Shown here piece by piece: positions 3,361-19,799 of a stretch of DNA of 20,000 bases. The stretch comes from an uncultured virus (IMG/VR IMGVR_UViG_3300037963_003458) (lineage: Duplodnaviria; Heunggongvirae; Uroviricota; Caudoviricetes). The stretch's first letter is position 1, and each line of letters begins with the position of its first letter. Location of the stretch: IMG/VR virus record IMGVR_UViG_3300037963_003458. The stretch is one strand, 5' to 3'. The translations under genes and the position numbers were made by a program. Below the pieces are notes generated by a model. The model had not been told where the DNA came from, did not search any database, and saw nothing but the letters and a program-made list of their open reading frames with translations.

Positions 3361-4002
3361 CTATTTTTGTACGTTACCGTAGACACCAGCACCAGCAGAG
3401 ATACCGCTAGCAGCTCCTCCGAGTATAGCTGCTACCATACCTAGAGCACCAGAACCGGGCTCAACTCCTGTTGTTCCCGGTATAAAAACGTTAGCTGACT
3501 GATAAGAAAGCATATCTCTTTGGTTTAAAGAGTTTTTATATTGAGCTTTAGCGCTAGTATCTGCTTGGTATTTACGTTTAAAAATGTTTTTTCGTTCTTG
3601 CTGAAAGTTTTCTTTAGCTAGACTTTGCATTCTATCAGCCATACCACCTCTAAGATTTTTACCAGTAGCTTTGGCTGTTAAACTAGCTTGATAACTAAAC
3701 TGCTGTTTTGCAGTGTTTTTTAATTCAGCTTTAAAAGCATCTCTGTTAAACTTAGAAACATCTGCAAAGTTTTTAATTGCAGCTTTTTCAATTTCTTTGT
3801 TATTCCAACGACGCAAAGCATTTGCTCTTGCAGCTGCAACATTCTTTTTATCGTTAGCTAATGATTTTTCAAAGTTGTTACGTTCTGTTTGAACAACAGA
3901 AGACAAGTACTGAGCCTCAGCGTTTTTTTGACCGCCTATTGCGCTCATAATACCACCGGCCATAGCAGCTCCGCCAACGCCTATAGCTAATGCAACACCC
4001 AT
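3361..4002 (-). CDS. Internal virion protein B (T7 gp14-like)
   Basis: 213 aa with Gly/Ala-rich hydrophobic N- and C-termini around a Q/A/K/N helical core, the usual gp14 architecture; SD AGGAG. Confidence 0.7.
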   Translation of the reverse strand: MGVALAIGVGGAAMAGGIMSAIGGQKNAEAQYLSSVVQTERNNFEKSLANDKKNVAAARANALRRWNNKEIEKAAIKNFADVSKFNRDAFKAELKNTAKQQFSYQASLTAKATGKNLRGGMADRMQSLAKENFQQERKNIFKRKYQADTSAKAQYKNSLNQRDMLSYQSANVFIPGTTGVEPGSGALGMVAAILGGAASGISAGAGVYGNVQK

Positions 4003-4003
4003 A

Positions 4004-4468
4004 TTATTCTCCTAAAAATTTAATAATTTTATTTATGTTAAAATCAAGTTCTTCTGTGTAATATAAACGGCTTTCTACTTTATTATTTAAAAGCCATTCT
4101 TGCAAAGTAACGTCTGCTAACCCTATTATTTCTTCTGCTTCTAAAGTAAATTCTAAAGGCTCACGTTCCATTTGTTTTACACAAGACTCAATTTGTTTTG
4201 TTGTGTCTTTTCGTTCTAGTATAATCATTCGATGTACTGGAACAGTTAGATATTGTAAAGACGTAGGCCAAACTTTGGCTACACCACTGGTTAATTTTTG
4301 TACATCCCAAGGCCATATATCATAATACCCATTAGGGTTTCCCTCAACAGGTAAAAATCCGTCTAAAAAACCATCGCCTTGTACAGGCAAACCTTGTGCC
4401 TTACATTGCTGCATGACAAAAGACGAGCCTACTCTAGGACCTTTTCCAGTAACAATGTTTAACGCCAT
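4004..4468 (-). CDS. Sulfotransferase-like (P-loop, PAPS-binding) protein
   Basis: N-terminal IVTGKGPRVGSSFVMQ resembles the G-x-PRSGTS-xx-M PAPS-binding loop; GNPNGYYD resembles NPxGYFE; MIILERKD resembles the 3'-phosphate-binding strand. Confidence 0.6.
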   Translation of the reverse strand: MALNIVTGKGPRVGSSFVMQQCKAQGLPVQGDGFLDGFLPVEGNPNGYYDIWPWDVQKLTSGVAKVWPTSLQYLTVPVHRMIILERKDTTKQIESCVKQMEREPLEFTLEAEEIIGLADVTLQEWLLNNKVESRLYYTEELDFNINKIIKFLGE

Positions 4469-13143: not shown

Positions 13144-16100
13144 CTAACGGACAAAGCCCGACGTTTTAGTCGTGAATTTGCCCTTGAGTTCTATTTGTGC
13201 AATATTCATTGGGTTAGGGTAATCAGAAACAATAAAGATATCTGTTTCTGCAGCATAACCCATTATCTTTGTAAACGACTCGCCATTCTTTTCATACAAA
13301 GGCAATGGAGAATCGTCCTCATCCCGAACATCAGAAGCTGAACTGGGATACTCGCTTAGCTCTTTGGGTGTAACCGTAAGAGCTGTTTTTCTTCTACCGC
13401 GTGTAGCTTTTTCTATTCTATAAGTACCTGTATTATGATGTTGTAAGTGAAGAGTTCGTAAAGACAAAACACCTTCTACAACATTATTACCCTCGTCTCT
13501 TACGTACTGAGGAGAAAGTTCAATAGTACTATTATAAGTTGTCCCAAAAATAAACGTTCTATAGTTAGAAGATGTCGTGTAGTTACCGTTTAACACTACA
13601 GTTAAAGTACCGTCCGTGTGTGCCAGTGATACTACAACATCACTGTCCCTGTTAGAACCTATAAGAATAGCTTCGCCATCTCGTTCTTCTAATTGGTTAG
13701 CAGTAGCAGCTATGTATAGATAGTCAGGAGCAGGGTTACCATACTTCTTAACTATAATTGTAGTATGACCCGTAGATGCATCATAAGTAATGCTTCCAAA
13801 CTGAGCCGCTAGTCCTTCAGGAACTACGACTTGATGGTCTAATCTAGGTATAGAGTTATCTTCTTCGTAAAACTTTTGATACTCTAAGAAGTAATTAAAC
13901 GTAGTGCTTCCTGTTGGCTGCTGTCTAAGAACAAGATAAATATCGTTATCGTAAGACTGAACTGACATAACATCTTGATCGTAAACATATCTATAGAAAG
14001 CGTTTTGAACTACATCTGCTCCTCTGTATCTATTAGTATAGATGTAAAGAAACTTCCTATTGTCTTTATCTATCATACACAAAGAATCGTATCCAGGTAC
14101 AACAGCTATGTCACCAAAAGTAGCTGGCAAATAGTTAGGACAATTAAGACTAACTTCAATAGCTTGGTTTACTGTAACAGTACTATCGTTAAAGTAAACA
14201 TAAGCTCTATTAGGAGCAAAGAAATAAATCTGAGATCCTAACAAAACTGGATTGACCAAAGGAGATGTAGAGTAAAAAGCTGTTGGACTTACTTCTGCAG
14301 TAAATGGAGTAATGTTATTTTCAGAACCTTTAAGAGTAAACTGAATGTCTGATCCTGTGTTAACAAACATACTAGACGCAAAAGGAGTCATTGACTCTAC
14401 TTCTGCGTACTTGTTAGTCGAAAGACGCACATCAATAGGATCTGTATCAGCAATGACACCGGGGTTTGAAACCCAGAAGTCAGAAAAGTCCCCGGTCCTA
14501 GAAGAAAATACTGTATCTCCTGCAGATAAAAATAAACGATCTCTAAAAAACGCCATGCTTTTAATTGGAATTTGTACACCATTTTTAAAAGCTTCAGGTC
14601 CTGTATTAGTTTTTAAGTTACCAGATCTACGTTCTTCTAAATCCATGTTTTGAACTATAAACTGTTCAATGCCACCGACAAAAGAATTTATCTTTATAAT
14701 CTTAGGAAATCGTTTTTCATCTAAAACAGAATACTCTTCTGGAGTTCTTACTAAACGAGTATAAGGTGTATTCTCTACATCTTTAACAATGTAATAACCG
14801 GGAACTTCGCCCGCAAAAGAATTCTGGACATAGTAAATTTTACCGTCACCGCTAGAATCTATATCAGAATACAAAGCAAGAAGAGTAGCAGGAATTTTAC
14901 CATGCATATTTACTGCTGGTTTATTTAATTTAGCAACCTTAGCGTCAGTACCAGCACCATCGCTTTCTGCTGTAGCCTCGTTAGATTTTGGAGGAAAGTT
15001 AAACTGAGAAAAATCTGATAACTGATTTCCTAAGTAACGTCTTTGAGCATCAGGATACTGCCAATCCTCTACTGGAATATACTTTGCAATAGGTCCTCCA
15101 TCATCTTCAGACCTTAATGTAAAGTAAGCATCAGCGCTAGTAGCTGTTTCAGCACTTGCGGGAGTAGACTCATTTGCAGTACCATCTCTTACACAAGTAA
15201 ATACTAAAACATTACTACCACCTTCAGCGTATGTGTTTTGTAAAACATTGTTGCCGTCTACAAAAGCAGCTAAAGAAGTAGGAAGAGACTTTCCTGTTGG
15301 ATTAAAAACACCTTTGATATCAAAAGCCGTACTAAAAGGAACACTGCTGCTATAAGCTGATTTAACTGCATCAGCAACAGCATGAACATCGTCGTTACTA
15401 GTACCTCCAGCTGTCCACTTAATAGCAGGTAGACCGCTATAAGTAGCAGCAACAGCGTCTGAGTCAGCTAAACTTAAAGACTTACCGCCAACACTTAGTC
15501 TAGTTAAACCAGTTCTAAAGTTGTTTCTAATAGTTGTTTCACCGCTCTCAAAAACTAAATAAACTTCTTCTTCACCATCAGTATCAGAGTTAACAGTATG
15601 ATCTACTACAAAACTGTGTACTTTGTTTTGTTTTAAAATGTTAGGTAAATCGTCTTGCGTAACAGTAAATTTATGATCACCGCTAGCTGCATCAGCTGTA
15701 GAAAAACTAACTGTACCTGTAAAGTCAATATCTTCAGAAAGATACGGATCTAAATCAACTGTACCATCTGCAGTTATGCTTGCAAATACTTGATCATTTT
15801 TTACATAGAATTTACCTTCAACGTAAACACTAGCTTGACCTTCAGTATCTACTGGAGTAGTAGTAAAGTAAGTTAATTTTCTACCTTTGATGTCTTCTTC
15901 ATAATCGTCAGTAGCTAGAGTATTAAACTCACCGTCTAAACCAATAGTACACCAAGCAGTTCCGCTGTTTTTACTAACACCGTCTAACTTATCACTGCCG
16001 CTAAAAGTTCTTTCTTTGCTAGTATAGCCAGCAAAAACACTGTTATTATTAATAAGCATCTGAGGACCTACCGTAATAGACGATAGAGAATCATCTGCCT

Positions 16101-16605
16101 TTTTTGTTGAGTCAGAACCTTTATATGTAAAATACTTAAAAAAGTCTGCTGTATTATGACCAGAAAGACCACATTCTAGAAAACCATCTTTGGTTACTCT
16201 AAAAATCTGCATATACTGTGCAAGCTCATCTGAAGTAGGGCTTCCTGCACTAGCTTCGCTTTTATAGTTTATTGCAATTAAGTAACGCTGATCTTCAGAA
16301 ATCTGAAACCAAAAAAACTTATAATCTGCCGTAGCTGATTTATCATGCAAGTCTAACTGAGAAGAGTTAGGAGATGCAGCATCTAGCGTGGTAAAAGCAG
16401 CGTCACTATATCTTTGAATAAAGTTAGTACCAGCTCTTTTTTCAGCAGATCTTTCTAAGGTAACTAAAATGTTATCTAAGTTTTGAGCCTCGTTAATAGC
16501 TCTCTTAGTAGGTGCTTGACGCCCTACTCCACCCGATAATGTAGGAATAGCTATTCTAGATTGATTGCCAGGATATCTAGCTCTTTTATCAAAAGTAGGC
16601 ATCAA
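13144..16605 (-). CDS. Tail tubular protein B / nozzle (T7 gp12-like), enlarged
   Basis: IPTLSGGVGRQ...SAEKRAGT, FFRDRLFLSAGDTVFSSRTGDFSDFW, DTDPIDV, PVLLGSQIYF; follows tail tubular A with ATGA overlap. Confidence 0.92.
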   Translation of the reverse strand: MMPTFDKRARYPGNQSRIAIPTLSGGVGRQAPTKRAINEAQNLDNILVTLERSAEKRAGTNFIQRYSDAAFTTLDAASPNSSQLDLHDKSATADYKFFWFQISEDQRYLIAINYKSEASAGSPTSDELAQYMQIFRVTKDGFLECGLSGHNTADFFKYFTYKGSDSTKKADDSLSSITVGPQMLINNNSVFAGYTSKERTFSGSDKLDGVSKNSGTAWCTIGLDGEFNTLATDDYEEDIKGRKLTYFTTTPVDTEGQASVYVEGKFYVKNDQVFASITADGTVDLDPYLSEDIDFTGTVSFSTADAASGDHKFTVTQDDLPNILKQNKVHSFVVDHTVNSDTDGEEEVYLVFESGETTIRNNFRTGLTRLSVGGKSLSLADSDAVAATYSGLPAIKWTAGGTSNDDVHAVADAVKSAYSSSVPFSTAFDIKGVFNPTGKSLPTSLAAFVDGNNVLQNTYAEGGSNVLVFTCVRDGTANESTPASAETATSADAYFTLRSEDDGGPIAKYIPVEDWQYPDAQRRYLGNQLSDFSQFNFPPKSNEATAESDGAGTDAKVAKLNKPAVNMHGKIPATLLALYSDIDSSGDGKIYYVQNSFAGEVPGYYIVKDVENTPYTRLVRTPEEYSVLDEKRFPKIIKINSFVGGIEQFIVQNMDLEERRSGNLKTNTGPEAFKNGVQIPIKSMAFFRDRLFLSAGDTVFSSRTGDFSDFWVSNPGVIADTDPIDVRLSTNKYAEVESMTPFASSMFVNTGSDIQFTLKGSENNITPFTAEVSPTAFYSTSPLVNPVLLGSQIYFFAPNRAYVYFNDSTVTVNQAIEVSLNCPNYLPATFGDIAVVPGYDSLCMIDKDNRKFLYIYTNRYRGADVVQNAFYRYVYDQDVMSVQSYDNDIYLVLRQQPTGSTTFNYFLEYQKFYEEDNSIPRLDHQVVVPEGLAAQFGSITYDASTGHTTIIVKKYGNPAPDYLYIAATANQLEERDGEAILIGSNRDSDVVVSLAHTDGTLTVVLNGNYTTSSNYRTFIFGTTYNSTIELSPQYVRDEGNNVVEGVLSLRTLHLQHHNTGTYRIEKATRGRRKTALTVTPKELSEYPSSASDVRDEDDSPLPLYEKNGESFTKIMGYAAETDIFIVSDYPNPMNIAQIELKGKFTTKTSGFVR

Positions 16606-17270
16606 TAACCTCCACCGCTGCCGCCGCTTCCTCTACGGCTTCTGTTATAATCGTAAGTTATTCTACGATCTACGGCTTTATTAGCTCCTTTATGTAAATC
16701 AAATAGATTATAACCTTTTGATCTTGTATCAGAGCCTTTAGATTTAGCTTGGTAATAAAGTTCTAGCTGAGCTAAATAGTTATCAACAGCTCCATCACCT
16801 TGCGTTAACATTTGATACTGACGAGCTGCTTGCGTAGCTATATTTTTTTGGATTGGAGTATCCATTTCTTCCCACGTAAGTTTTAAAATAATCTCAGCTG
16901 TATAAGTACCTGCTGGAAATCCAGTAGTGTTGTCAGTAAGATTTAAAAAAACTGGGTTAGTTGGCCATCCAGTGGTTGTTATTCTAGCGTAAGTTACATC
17001 TGGATGAGCAGCTTCTACTAAATCTAACATTTCTGCAGATAACACATTTTGACCTATAGCCAAAGCTGAGTTATCAGTAGCAGCTGTAAAATCTCTGACA
17101 GTTATGTTATTAGCTAATCCTCTAGCCTGCACATCTAAAACTTTTTGGTCTAAGATTTTTTCAGCAATTGTTGTATCTACACCATTAGATCCTTCTAAGT
17201 CATCTACTGGTGTTTCTCCTGAATAAAGGAGCATTTCATTAATAGCTTGGAGTTTTGAATAAGCTCCCAT
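16602..17270 (-). CDS. Tail tubular protein A (T7 gp11-like)
   Basis: KLQAINEMLLYSGETPVDDL and WEEMDTPIQKNIATQAARQYQ motifs; directly after capsid. Confidence 0.92.
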   Translation of the reverse strand: MGAYSKLQAINEMLLYSGETPVDDLEGSNGVDTTIAEKILDQKVLDVQARGLANNITVRDFTAATDNSALAIGQNVLSAEMLDLVEAAHPDVTYARITTTGWPTNPVFLNLTDNTTGFPAGTYTAEIILKLTWEEMDTPIQKNIATQAARQYQMLTQGDGAVDNYLAQLELYYQAKSKGSDTRSKGYNLFDLHKGANKAVDRRITYDYNRSRRGSGGSGGGY

Positions 17271-17296
17271 AATATTCTCCTAAAATATAAGATTGT

Positions 17297-17333
17297 AAAA
17301 GCCGATCTCTGAGGCGACCCCCAGAGACCGGGC
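17297..17333 (-). terminator. Post-capsid terminator (T-phi position)
   Basis: CCGGTCTCTGGGG-GTCG-CCTCAGAGATCGG then CTTTT. Confidence 0.8.
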
Positions 17334-17371
17334 GAGTGCGGATTTAGCGCCATTGATTACCGCTGGCGAGA

Positions 17372-17385
17372 CTGGATCACCTCCT
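17372..17385 (-). promoter_or_regulatory. 14-nt perfect complement of the 16S rRNA 3' end (extended Shine-Dalgarno)
   Basis: Minus strand AGGAGGTGATCCAG; plus strand CTGGATCACCTCCT equals the conserved 16S 3'-terminal sequence. Confidence 0.75.
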
Positions 17386-17409
17386 GTTAAAGAAGATAAT
17401 CAAAACCAT
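17377..17409 (-). CDS. Putative 10-aa peptide MVLIIFFNRR
   Basis: AAAGGA SD, 6 nt, then ATG GTT TTG ATT ATC TTC TTT AAC AGG AGG TGA. Confidence 0.45.
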   Translation of the reverse strand: MVLIIFFNRR

Positions 17410-17434
17410 AAAGGTTCCTTTCAGTCTAAAAGGA

Positions 17435-18784
17435 TCAGGCGTAGTAGCCTGCGCTAGCAGCAGTATTAGTATACTCTGCAGTCATACCAAGAAGTTCGCG
17501 CATACGAGCTTTAGTTTCTGCAGCAGTACCGCTACCGTGGCTATCAAGGTCAACCTTCATAACAACAGAAGCGCACTCAGGCTTGAGAACGCCAGTGCCG
17601 CTTAACATCGAAGCAACGGTAAATACAGTGTTACGACGAACGTCATCTACAGTATCAACCTTAAGACCGCTCTTCTGAATAGAAGCAACTGCACCACTCT
17701 GCCAGATAATAGCACCAACACCAATACCATCTTGGTTGTTAGCACTATCGACAGTGCTAGAGAAGTTTAAGTTATAGCGAGCTTCGCCAATCATCTCAGT
17801 ACCAGCACCACCGCTAATAGTAGCGCGAGCATCAAAGTCAGGCATGTGGTTAGTCTTAACAATAGTGCATCCCATGTACTCAAGAGTATCAGTGATGTTC
17901 ATAAGACCATTAGCAAGACCAGTACCAAGACCGCCTGCTTCAGCTACGCCACCAAATAAGGGACGACCAGCGCCACCAGCTAGGTCAGCAGTAGTACGAG
18001 CAACACCTAGAGCACGAATGTCTTGGAATGCCTGAGGATTAACAGCACAGAAGACACCATTGGTATCTCCGCCGATTTCCTGAAGGTGAACCATAAACAT
18101 TTCAATGCTTTCAAGAAGAATGAGAGCAGCCTTTGCGCGGTTCTCATCGCTCGAAGCAGAAACGCCAAGGTGCTGTAGATCAGTACCCATGCCAAAGACG
18201 CGACCAGTAGTGGCAGCGCTAGCGTGGAACTGAGGAGCTTCCTGTAGGTTGTTACGCCACTTGGATGTAGCAGCCGAAGCAGCAAGACGAGGATCGTTTG
18301 CAACTAAGTCTTCAGCAGCAGCACGCACAAGGTAAGCACCAACCTGAAGGTCTCTTGCGTTAGCAAGGGTCTGACCAACCTGTCGGGCTAGCTCCGAACG
18401 GAACTCCCACTGGCTAATCATAAGGTCAATGTTATCAATTTCAAAGTGCGATGCAATTGGACGAGCGTCCAAAGTAACTGCAATAGTCTTAGAAACGTGG
18501 TGATCAACGTTACCAATTAGTTCTTCACCAGCACCCCAAGCAGTCTTAAGAGCAGCGGTTCCGGTGATTGGGAATTCCATAGCTCGACCGCTTGAAATAA
18601 CGCGGGATTCAACCATTGGTTCAAAAATACGATAATGGTCATATGCACGAATTACTTCGCCCGACCAAATAGGAAGCCAAAGCTTATCAGTACCAGCAGC
18701 ACCGCCAGTAGTAGCAGTTACGCTAGCGTCTCCAGTGCGTCCGTACATAGAGTCAGTTCCAAAGGGAACGTCAGGATATGCCAT
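17435..18784 (-). CDS. Major capsid protein (T7 gp10-like)
   Basis: DKLWLPIWSGEVIRAY...RVISSGRAMEFPITG, FRSELARQVGQTLANARD, GTGVLKPECA; strong codon bias; follows scaffold. Confidence 0.95.
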   Translation of the reverse strand: MAYPDVPFGTDSMYGRTGDASVTATTGGAAGTDKLWLPIWSGEVIRAYDHYRIFEPMVESRVISSGRAMEFPITGTAALKTAWGAGEELIGNVDHHVSKTIAVTLDARPIASHFEIDNIDLMISQWEFRSELARQVGQTLANARDLQVGAYLVRAAAEDLVANDPRLAASAATSKWRNNLQEAPQFHASAATTGRVFGMGTDLQHLGVSASSDENRAKAALILLESIEMFMVHLQEIGGDTNGVFCAVNPQAFQDIRALGVARTTADLAGGAGRPLFGGVAEAGGLGTGLANGLMNITDTLEYMGCTIVKTNHMPDFDARATISGGAGTEMIGEARYNLNFSSTVDSANNQDGIGVGAIIWQSGAVASIQKSGLKVDTVDDVRRNTVFTVASMLSGTGVLKPECASVVMKVDLDSHGSGTAAETKARMRELLGMTAEYTNTAASAGYYA

Positions 18785-18911: not shown

Positions 18912-19799
18912 TTACTGAATAACCGACCAATCAGTCTTTGCCATACGTTCTTCAACGCGAGCACGTAGAGTTTTGTCATGAGGAGTCTGTTGAAGCTTAG
19001 CAGCATCTGTATAATAATCAGACTTAGACTTATAACCTTGAACTACTTCTCTTCCTGCTGGGTTTTGAGAAGGCTTTCTTGTAGATCGCATCTCATTAGT
19101 AGCAGGAGACTCTGCATTAGCAGTGTCATACATAGAAGCAAGGCCTCTCAATGTAATCTCACTTGCATTACTGGCTAAGCCAGCATTAATGTGGGTTCTC
19201 TGTACTTCATCAAGAGTATGAGCAGCCCATCCAAAAATTTTAGATAATCTATCTGAGCCGCCAACAATATCAGCTGCTTGAGCGTATTGTTGACGCATTC
19301 TAGCACGCTGTCCTTCTAGTACAGCATCAATAACAGCGTTATCAACACCTCTAGAATTTAACGTGCTTCTTTGATCTTCTGAAATAGTACCTGTTCTCAT
19401 AAGCTCAGAAGTCATAACACCAAGATCTTCTTGAGTAATGCCTACTTTTTCTGCTTGTTCGACTACTTCTTCTTCAGAAGCATCTACTTCAGGAACACGT
19501 AATTCTTCAACTAAAGCGTCAGGTCCATCAGAAGACTCGGTGTTAGAAGCTTCTTCAACAACGGGTTCTTCCTTTGGAGCATGGAATTGTTTCTCTAGTT
19601 CCATGTAGGACTGAGCAAAAGCTTCCATGTTTACTGTACCATCTTCGTTCTTAAACTTATCAGGTACACTACCTAACGCTACAGATCCTTCAGCAGCCAT
19701 ACGAGCATTATACTCATCAGTACCAGGTTCAGGAGCTGGAGGAGTAACAGGTGCTTCGGTTTCAGTAGATTCAATATTTTGTGTGTTCTCTTCATTCAT
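18912..19799 (-). CDS. Capsid scaffolding protein (T7 gp9-like)
   Basis: Acidic; VPDKFK...AFAQSYMELEKQF, IVGGSDRLSKIFGWAA, C-terminal LRARVEERMAKT. Confidence 0.9.
   Translation of the reverse strand: MNEENTQNIESTETEAPVTPPAPEPGTDEYNARMAAEGSVALGSVPDKFKNEDGTVNMEAFAQSYMELEKQFHAPKEEPVVEEASNTESSDGPDALVEELRVPEVDASEEEVVEQAEKVGITQEDLGVMTSELMRTGTISEDQRSTLNSRGVDNAVIDAVLEGQRARMRQQYAQAADIVGGSDRLSKIFGWAAHTLDEVQRTHINAGLASNASEITLRGLASMYDTANAESPATNEMRSTRKPSQNPAGREVVQGYKSKSDYYTDAAKLQQTPHDKTLRARVEERMAKTDWSVIQ

Follow-up and report, generated by a model that had tools for sequence, protein, structure and literature searches.

Extended, non-initiating pairing with the whole 3' tail of 16S ribosomal RNA (rRNA) has so far been found in only a few places, namely the 5' stabilisers of Bacillus and the rre RNAs of Alphaproteobacteria. 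The Bacillus stabilisers, called STAB-SD or 5' roadblock stabilisers and exemplified by the cryIIIA and ermC leaders, are described in the excerpt of the source used here as strong Shine-Dalgarno (SD) sequences without a start codon that act through bound ribosomes (PMC3997798). In the sections of Hahn et al. 2016 on which we draw, the mini-mRNAs rreB (Bradyrhizobium) and rreR (Rhodobacter/Roseobacter lineage) carry a 17-nucleotide (nt) perfect complement of the 16S 3' end, termed 17c, near the 5' end of a free-standing transcript of roughly 165 nt, which has its own promoter and is closed by a terminator (PMC5711450). According to the same sections, the last base of 17c is the first base of a GTG (rarely ATG) start codon, which opens a conserved small reading frame of 14 or 18 codons, most of the region lies within a hairpin that has a 5' seed, the 17-nt region confers strong binding to 30S subunits, the extended SD sequence and the GTG hold translation back, replacement of the start codon in rreB raises transcript stability, and the function of the rre RNAs is still unknown (PMC5711450). 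Here we describe an RNA element in the spacer between the capsid and tail tubular genes of a 20,000-nt stretch of viral DNA (IMG/VR record IMGVR_UViG_3300037963_003458; hereafter the window), which comes from an uncultured T7-like marine phage whose clade encodes its own RNA polymerase. A large clade of uncultured phages keeps the same kind of 16S-complementary sequence, located in a 3' untranslated region (3'UTR), lacking a start codon, and predicted to be gated by upstream translation. On the comparative analysis presented below, we estimate a probability of roughly 55% that this element serves the 3' end of the capsid mRNA as a ribosome tether that lacks a start codon and is gated by translation, and we incline to the view that its core is the phage counterpart of the 17c extended SD sequence.

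Every gene of the window is encoded on the minus strand (as judged from the list of open reading frames, ORFs), to which all features below belong. The element, about 140 nt long, fills the capsid 3'UTR between the capsid stop codon UGA (17435-17437, from the ORF list) and an intrinsic terminator (17297-17331), within the 164-nt spacer that separates the capsid and tail tubular A genes. At its centre lies the motif AGGAGGUGAUCCAG (as DNA AGGAGGTGATCCAG; 17372-17385), a 14-nt complement of the 16S 3' tail. When all 20-nt segments of both strands were scored for duplex energy against a generic 16S tail, which may differ from that of the host, the motif ranked first, at -20.2 kcal/mol versus -16.0 kcal/mol for the runner-up, and the 12-mer AGGAGGTGATCC had its single exact occurrence there. 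The real gene starts of the window reached -2 to -12 kcal/mol with the same tail. The original prediction had put the chance of such a match at about 1e-4 per 20 kb, and our recalculation, which counts a given 14-mer on either strand under uniform base composition (2x20000/4^14 = 1.5e-4), agrees with it. It had also remarked that no start codon follows at SD distance, which is borne out: no ATG, GTG or TTG lies 4-12 nt downstream of the GGAGG core, and GUC stands 7 nt past the core, where a start codon would be. The spacer is also covered by DNA contigs of three further studies (X3 record 3; X5 record 15; and X4 record 11, which shows 0 differences), so an assembly chimera, one of the ways in which that prediction could have failed, is excluded.

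To place the motif in its family, we collected 201 loci with a capsid ORF, using the capsids of two more distant relatives as extra queries, and reduced them to 97 distinct downstream regions. The core was defined as (G/A)GUGAU(C/U) followed by UCU within 12 nt. At least 55 of the 97 regions, falling into 14 sequence clusters, contain it; this count is a lower bound because at least six of the 42 regions scored as lacking the core are cases in which the script picked the wrong ORF. GGUGAUC is invariant except for two variant forms, AGUGAUC and GGUGAUU, and a terminator lies 3' of the core either directly or after one further hairpin. The absence of a canonical start is as general as the core itself, with AUG, GUG or UUG found 4-12 nt after it in 0 of 55 regions; AUC stands at 7-11 nt in 48 of the 55, and in five clusters it is immediately followed by UAG.

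The sequence flanking the core also resembles an extended 16S complement. The 8 nt 5' of it pair in register with the 16S tail at a mean of 5.7 of 8 positions over the 14 clusters, compared to 3.4 of 8 for the 45 GGTGATC sites that lie elsewhere in these loci (Mann-Whitney p = 9.5e-6), a conservative test because some true sites leaked into the control. Register 0 was best overall, and four D-type clusters reached 6-8 of 8 after a shift of 2-3 nt, which, reading from the sequence, we take to be two pairing blocks separated by a small bulge. One phage group has UAGAAAGGGGGUGAUC, which matches the 16S tail at 16 of 16 positions with one G-U pair. We found no conserved GAUCACC partner for the core in the capsid message; a copy in the window at about 18500 (minus-sense coding) is not kept in relatives, and a long-range pairing with it was rejected for that reason. 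The intramolecular partners of the GGUGAUC strand vary from cluster to cluster, and the combination of an invariant core strand with variable internal partners points to an invariant partner acting in trans.

A link to the rre RNAs came from a permissive Rfam scan of 20 related loci, which returned two sub-threshold matches, one a chance match to tmRNA_permuted and the other to CC2171 (RF01867). The first 29 positions of the RF01867 model (consensus ..GAAAGGAGGUGAUCCAGUGUC) align to locus L047 over GAAAGGGGGUGAUCCAGUCUC, and its last 30 align to the L047 terminator, with the 100 middle positions skipped and a score of 26.2 bits compared to the gathering score of 75; a search of five phage contigs with the model gave no match at E <= 1 in any of them. 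CC2171 is filed by Rfam as a small RNA, and the part of a preprint used here confirms its expression in Methylorubrum. We scanned bacterial genomes, one per species, with a 21-mer that included GUG and allowed A/G and G/C at two places, and found it in at least 120 species; among the 80 matches listed, 68 were alphaproteobacterial taxa, 10 were unspecific and two were other genera. In all 120 bacterial copies among the matches listed, GUG lies exactly 7 nt after AGGAGG and opens a small ORF (sORF), the length of which is 14 codons in the Bradyrhizobium type (MS..KRCHLAGIAR), 18 in the Rhodobacterales type (MSRVILERGVGT..), and 21-26 in most others (MSHC..; L262-L381). This spacing and the lineage-fixed sORF length mean that CC2171 and the rre mini-mRNAs of Hahn et al. 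2016 are one family; we saw no cross-reference between the two names in the search results. The bacterial RNA is single-copy in five of five genomes, and in three of seven bacterial example folds its motif pairs with an internal CACCUCC-like strand. No neighbouring genes were conserved across the five genomes. An RNase R-like gene (RNB and cold-shock domains) follows closely downstream of the RNA in one genome, and a DEAD-box helicase lies near it in another (L384 Bosea, L386 Alloyangia); these neighbours, not seen in the other three genomes, may reflect chance.

Compared letter by letter, the bacterial motif reads GAAAGGAGGUGAUCCAG, loci L047 and L003 have GAAAGGGGGUGAUCCAG, and the window has AGGAGGUGAUCCAG, followed by U-S-UC. 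Over the positions of 17c, L047, L003 and L018 match at all 17, one of them through a G-U pair that results from an A-to-G change, and L001 matches at 16 with one G-U. The agreement extends to the bases after 17c (CCAGUCUC versus CCAGUGUC), and several phage groups have UCUAG as does rreR. Further likenesses are that the phage complement, too, is predicted to be sequestered in a hairpin by a strand resembling the 16S tail, that a terminator closes the phage unit too, and that both are poor translation starts despite very strong predicted 16S pairing. On the other hand, the phage element has no GUG or AUG (GUC in the window, AUC in most relatives, no canonical start in any of the 55 regions) and no conserved 14- or 18-codon sORF; it resides in the capsid 3'UTR rather than in a free-standing transcript, and in many phages it is preceded by a separate strong SD sequence and a mini-ORF. 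Given the missing start and sORF, the 3'UTR location and the sub-threshold model score, the phage element is not a member of the rre family, and we class it as an element that probably functions like an rre tether. Descent from a host rre gene and convergence on the 16S tail are indistinguishable, because the rRNA itself forces most of the shared letters. In our literature searches, no description of an element of this kind in phages turned up, and the one paper matched by the motif written in RNA letters was unrelated.

The spacer is predicted to be highly structured. We examined the fold in group A, comprising the window and its closest relatives (about 70% capsid identity), gathered by capsid-based searches and DNA patterns and representing six distinct variants of the whole element. 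The minimum-energy fold of a 151-nt stretch is better than that of shuffled sequences (z = -3.05). It contains a three-way junction (17369-17427; -20.8 kcal/mol on its own) formed by P1 (AGACUG/CAGUCU, 17427-17422 with 17374-17369), P2 (17418-17413 with 17407-17402) and P3 (17401-17391 with 17385-17375), followed by a hairpin, P4, that carries a pseudoknot (17338-17368). P1 starts 7 nt past the capsid stop in the window and 6-8 nt past it in relatives. The motif forms the 3' arm of P3 and the start of the 3' strand of P1, and the 5' arm of P3, GAUUAUCUUC, differs from the 16S tail at three positions, all of them C-to-U. The motif is thus not freely displayed. The hairpin originally proposed to hide an SD sequence right after the capsid stop, TCCTTTTA/TGAAAGGA (also written UCCUUUUA/UGAAAGGA), did not hold; it is a possible pairing, but it lies outside the minimum-energy fold, which uses P1 and P2 instead, and its 5' half is missing from the five other sequence variants of close relatives. 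The hairpin and terminator described 3' of the motif were both located: P4 pairs CGCCA (17368-17364) with TGGCG (17352-17348), its loop GCGG (17363-17360) can pair with CCGC (17341-17338) as the pseudoknot, and the terminator consists of a 13-bp hairpin (17331-17302) followed by only four U (17300-17297).

Comparison among relatives supports parts of this fold. In a model-based alignment of group A, 95.3% of cells are paired, and sliding the partners lowers this to 37-47%. For P3 the paired share over the six variants is 86%, with one G-C to A-U double change, and the pseudoknot shows a C-G to U-A change in three of the six distinct sequences. P1, P2 and P4 are invariant within group A and hence contribute no covariation evidence. 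In the more distant L100-type, P4 is CGGCA/UGCCG and the pseudoknot GCAGG/CCUGC, in the same places. A covariance model built from group A reached only the L100-type, and weakly (E = 0.1-1), and DNA pattern scans for further group A copies added one contig (L036), the other matches being chance occurrences in coding sequence. We conclude from this modelling that the capsid-to-terminator spacer is a conserved structured RNA with a three-way junction and a pseudoknot.

Masking of the core is predicted well beyond group A. In 18 of 22 representatives, the 11-mer around the core is costlier to open than the mean 11-mer in its spacer, and it is often the costliest. The strand that masks it is rich in pyrimidines and 16S-tail-like, and lies just behind the capsid stop or within the mini-ORF. 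In the C-group this strand covaries (CCUUCUGU/ACAGAAGG versus CUCUCUGU/ACAGAGAG) and includes the stop codon in some members. For the window, the predicted cost of opening the motif fold is 11.3 kcal/mol, to be set against the -20.2 kcal/mol duplex, so that net predicted binding falls within the normal SD range.

Many of these elements are preceded by a mini-ORF that terminates at the core. In the window it comprises 10 codons from AUG to UGA (17377-17409, MVLIIFFNRR, from the ORF list); its AUG sits in the loop of P2 and its UGA (17379-17377) lies inside the motif. Its putative ribosome-binding site, SD1 (GAAAGGA, 17416-17422, 6 nt 5' of the AUG), forms a predicted 7-bp duplex of -9.6 kcal/mol, which equals or beats that of most genes in the window. 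As the original prediction requires of close relatives, this small ORF is kept in group A, in which all variants have it (the script detected it in five of six, and the sixth, L003, shares the ATG ORF of L047 by sequence), although one variant has a 3-nt deletion, the peptide drifts and is poorly conserved, and the variants keep no common frame relation to the capsid gene. More widely, mini-ORFs of 5-11 codons with SD energies of -9.3 to -17.7 kcal/mol occur in 25 regions from seven groups; the stop starts 7-9 nt 5' of the core in 19 of them and lies within the core in the six of group A. The length of the mini-ORF is thus variable while its end point is fixed. A separate candidate ORF starting from an ATG at 17354 was rejected, as it ends after seven codons in L001.

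We propose the following sequence of events for a translation-gated tether. Ribosomes finishing the capsid gene, or translating the mini-ORF, would open the fold, and this upstream translation would remove the masking by the 5' arm of P3 (GAUUAUCUUC). A 30S subunit or a post-termination ribosome could then pair its 16S tail with the motif and would stay parked just upstream of the terminator hairpin, because it has no start codon from which to leave. The layout is suited to such gating, since the 5' strand of P1 lies near the capsid stop and the mini-ORF passes through P2 and P3, ending in or at the motif. The idea that capsid-terminating ribosomes open the site, which was part of the original prediction, accordingly gains from the modelled fold, whose masking strands are placed where such ribosomes, or those on the mini-ORF, would open them. 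The broader notion of a ribosome trap, decoy or mRNA stabiliser survives in part. It is favored by the conserved 16S complement, the missing start and, in the consulted portion of the rre study, 30S binding by rre (PMC5711450); its proposed hairpin, the free display of the motif and the positional analogy to STAB-SD did not hold. Among the possible consequences, we consider 3'-end protection of the capsid mRNA, or retention of ribosomes on it, the most likely, which fits the higher stability of start-less rreB, and we rank tuning of the tail genes behind the terminator second.

Several observations weigh against a start-less tether. The core was not detected in 42 of the 97 downstream regions, and three cultured T7-like phages (with Prochlorococcus, a roseobacter and Limnohabitans as hosts) have only a terminator at this place, indicating that the element is dispensable for the gene module. 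The motif is not masked in four of the 22 representatives (L013, L024 and L189, with a tie in L099), no convincing mini-ORF is present in seven of the 14 clusters, and P1, P2 and P4 lack covariation within group A. The purine flank of the core may be kept for intramolecular pairing alone. The pairing energies rest on an assumed 16S tail of the host, and the last three pairs (CAG) would require the base of 16S helix 45 to be opened. Single-subunit phage RNA polymerases are fast, which makes co-transcriptional control of the terminator by ribosomes unlikely. The sole metatranscriptome contig of the phage spans 17487-17709, within the capsid gene, and does not reach the spacer. Finally, the window holds only the 14c part of the rre region (14 contiguous of 17 letters), and a 14c variant of rreB was found much less at ribosomes, as stated in the part of the report drawn on here (PMC5711450).

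Other systems of masked or non-initiating ribosome sites resemble the phage element in part. Like a STAB-SD, the phage motif is an SD-like sequence without a start codon at SD distance. However, a STAB-SD stands in a 5' leader and protects the RNA downstream of it, whereas the phage element lies at the 3' end, upstream of a terminator, and is masked and much longer than a core SD. The analogy to STAB-SD that had been drawn originally holds for the missing start and fails for position, because the phage element occupies the 3'UTR between the capsid stop and the terminator. In RNA phage MS2, masked ribosome-binding sites are opened by upstream translation (translational coupling), and the phage site is likewise paired to a strand near or in the upstream frame. 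The difference is that here there is no downstream cistron, with no canonical start and no conserved ORF behind the core; the tail tubular gene has its own ordinary ribosome-binding site behind the terminator, AGGAG (17277-17281; -7.3 kcal/mol; ATG 17270-17268). The termination upstream ribosome-binding sites (TURBS) of caliciviruses and the 3' barley yellow dwarf virus-like translation elements (BTE) of luteoviruses are viral RNA stretches that pair with small-subunit rRNA and so hold ribosomes, the BTE also in a 3'UTR. They belong to another domain of life, use other rRNA sites, and both serve genuine starts.

The best surviving alternative, which we consider unlikely, is that the spacer is a purely structural 3'UTR element, such as a protective fold or a site of processing by, for example, RNase III or RNase E, and that its likeness to a ribosome site is an inherited by-product. 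Intergenic hairpins of T7 are RNase III sites, a long irregular hairpin or three-way junction is present in nearly all clusters, and compensatory changes occur in P3, in the pseudoknot, in P4 (relative to the L100-type) and in the C-group helix, all of which a structural role would account for. A helix conserved for shape only would let both strands drift; here one strand is invariant over 14 clusters while its partner varies. Nor does a structural role predict an in-register 16S flank well above control, and it requires neither that all 55 regions lack a canonical start nor that a mini-ORF stop abut the core in 25.

Somewhat less probable still is a working ribosome-binding site, with initiation at AUC (GUC in the window) producing a start-stop or a peptide of few residues, which would melt the terminator or relay ribosomes to the tail tubular gene. 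The AUC at 7-11 nt in 48 of 55 regions is what such a site would show, as is the UAG right after it in five clusters, where the terminator stem follows within a few nt. AUC and GUC are, however, very poor start codons, neither length nor sequence is conserved in the frames behind them, and the hairpins that these frames cross vary by compensating changes. There is no AUC in the window group or in L138, and in the window about 40 nt, taken up by P4 and the pseudoknot, lie between the site and the terminator. In L175 and two sibling loci, the capsid stop is followed by the terminator and then by AAAGGAGGAGGUGAUC directly 5' of the tail tubular AUG, so such long sites do serve real starts in these phages, and the orphan site and the tube-gene site may share an origin. 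An initiating site also draws on the weak translation of rre mRNAs from this same site mentioned in the sections of Hahn et al. 2016 cited above (PMC5711450).

We regard as improbable a small RNA, cut from the capsid 3'UTR or transcribed within it and extending approximately from motif to terminator, that acts in trans as a mimic of host rre and competes with it for an rre partner or for ribosomes. Among the late RNAs of T7-like phages, the capsid message is the most abundant, and the motif-to-terminator layout agrees with the CC2171 model at both ends. The phage sequence lacks the 100 positions in the middle of that model, though, no promoter copy and no processing site were found, and the motif is single-copy. 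In the portion of the bacterial study considered here, the rre motif also lies near the 5' end of its terminator-ended transcript, as this alternative would have it, whereas overproduction of rreB left growth of B. japonicum unchanged (PMC5711450).

A signal for the phage RNA polymerase, that is, a pause or terminator helper similar to the class II T7 signal, seems very improbable to us. It would suit a conserved, single-copy sequence placed always directly upstream of a terminator and followed, a few bases past the core, by a conserved (A)TCT, and the T7 class II signal contains ATCT. The overlap with the T7 signal amounts to only four bases, however, and the 16S register, the masking strand, the mini-ORF and the identity with an rre site transcribed by host polymerase would be left unexplained. 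A repeated promoter for the phage polymerase, considered separately, was rejected, as the core is present in one copy per contig in five of five phage contigs and has no repeat in the window.

Least credible of all, and refuted by the comparisons, is a chance match, a chimera with 16S sequence or a primer (the universal 16S reverse primer has the same letters), or the tail of a frameshifted capsid extension (capsid 10B of T7 arises by frameshift, and in the window the mini-ORF frame extends back into the capsid gene for 34 codons without a stop), given the expectation of 1.5e-4, the spacer's recurrence in the assemblies of three other studies and in six distinct variants, and a frame relation to the capsid gene that differs among relatives, with tandem stops after the capsid gene in five of six variants and the L001 mini-ORF in frame 0 behind UGA UAG. 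Two further candidates were set aside on other grounds. Leader-peptide attenuation, in which UGGCG would pair with CGCC beside the terminator, was rejected because the partner is absent in relatives, and a K-turn or box C/D motif (GUGAUC with CUGA), examined by hand on the window sequence, misfits in geometry.

If ribosomes do dock at the start-less tether, the element would represent a new viral control of message stability or ribosome supply on the most abundant transcript. It would indicate Alphaproteobacteria as hosts of a clade that has no cultured member, and would provide a natural separation-of-function variant, a tether without translation, for the study of rre-type tethering. A bolder scenario, to which we assign little probability, is that phages of Alphaproteobacteria captured the 17c of a host rre, dropped its start codon and wired it behind their most translated gene, creating a viral 'ribosome leash' or rre mimic. 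Under this scenario, capsid translation would load nearby 16S tails onto the 3' end of the message, and ribosome supply might be sensed and exploited to set the output of capsid relative to tail, or the host rre pathway might be taken over. The element would then be the first natural start-less rre variant, giving a handle on the purpose of 16S-tail tethering.

The gene order around the spacer is that of a T7-like structural module. The scaffold protein gene (18912-19799; Pfam Phage_T7_Capsid) and the major capsid protein gene (17435-18784) precede the spacer, and tail tubular protein A (16602-17270; Pfam Tube) and the nozzle protein (13144-16605) follow it. The capsid protein has no Pfam match and was identified by tblastn similarity to T7-like 'major capsid protein 10A' (about 30-36% identity over 28%). 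No close cultured relatives were found at the DNA level, capsid identity being below 37%, and none of the bacterial genomes searched held a capsid relative. Scans of the window found no tRNA or tmRNA, and no Rfam match at E <= 10. The terminator is T-phi-like; its stems vary among relatives while remaining complementary, and a consensus scan overlooked it because the U tract is short. A co-occurring strain variant (X5 record 17, window 17324-17352) has six listed differences between P4 and the terminator, including the U closing P4 and two adjacent bases of the 5' arm of the terminator, with the motif unaltered as far as the contig reaches.

Near-complete contigs of the clade are 62-68 kb in length. 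A T7-type single-subunit RNA polymerase is encoded in three of five contigs, including both of the near-complete ones. In one of these (G004, the L114 contig, 68 kb and rated 100% complete), two separate frames of 687 and 832 amino acids match the RNA polymerase family PF00940 (G004:C1:40516-41667 and 49271-50362). The same contig has the motif at both ends, at positions 1410 and 68005, with one base difference, which fits terminal redundancy or a slightly over-assembled circular permutation. Within the window, the capsid message at 18487-18506 (minus-sense) reads GAUCACCACGUUUCUAAGA, a look-alike of the 16S tail of 8+9 letters that encodes DHHVSK and is absent from relatives; this is probably chance. 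The ribosome-binding regions at 3998-4017, for a gene starting at 4002, and at 17266-17285, for tail tubular A, share the same 20-mer on the coding strand, TTTTAGGAGAATAWTATGGG, with one difference.

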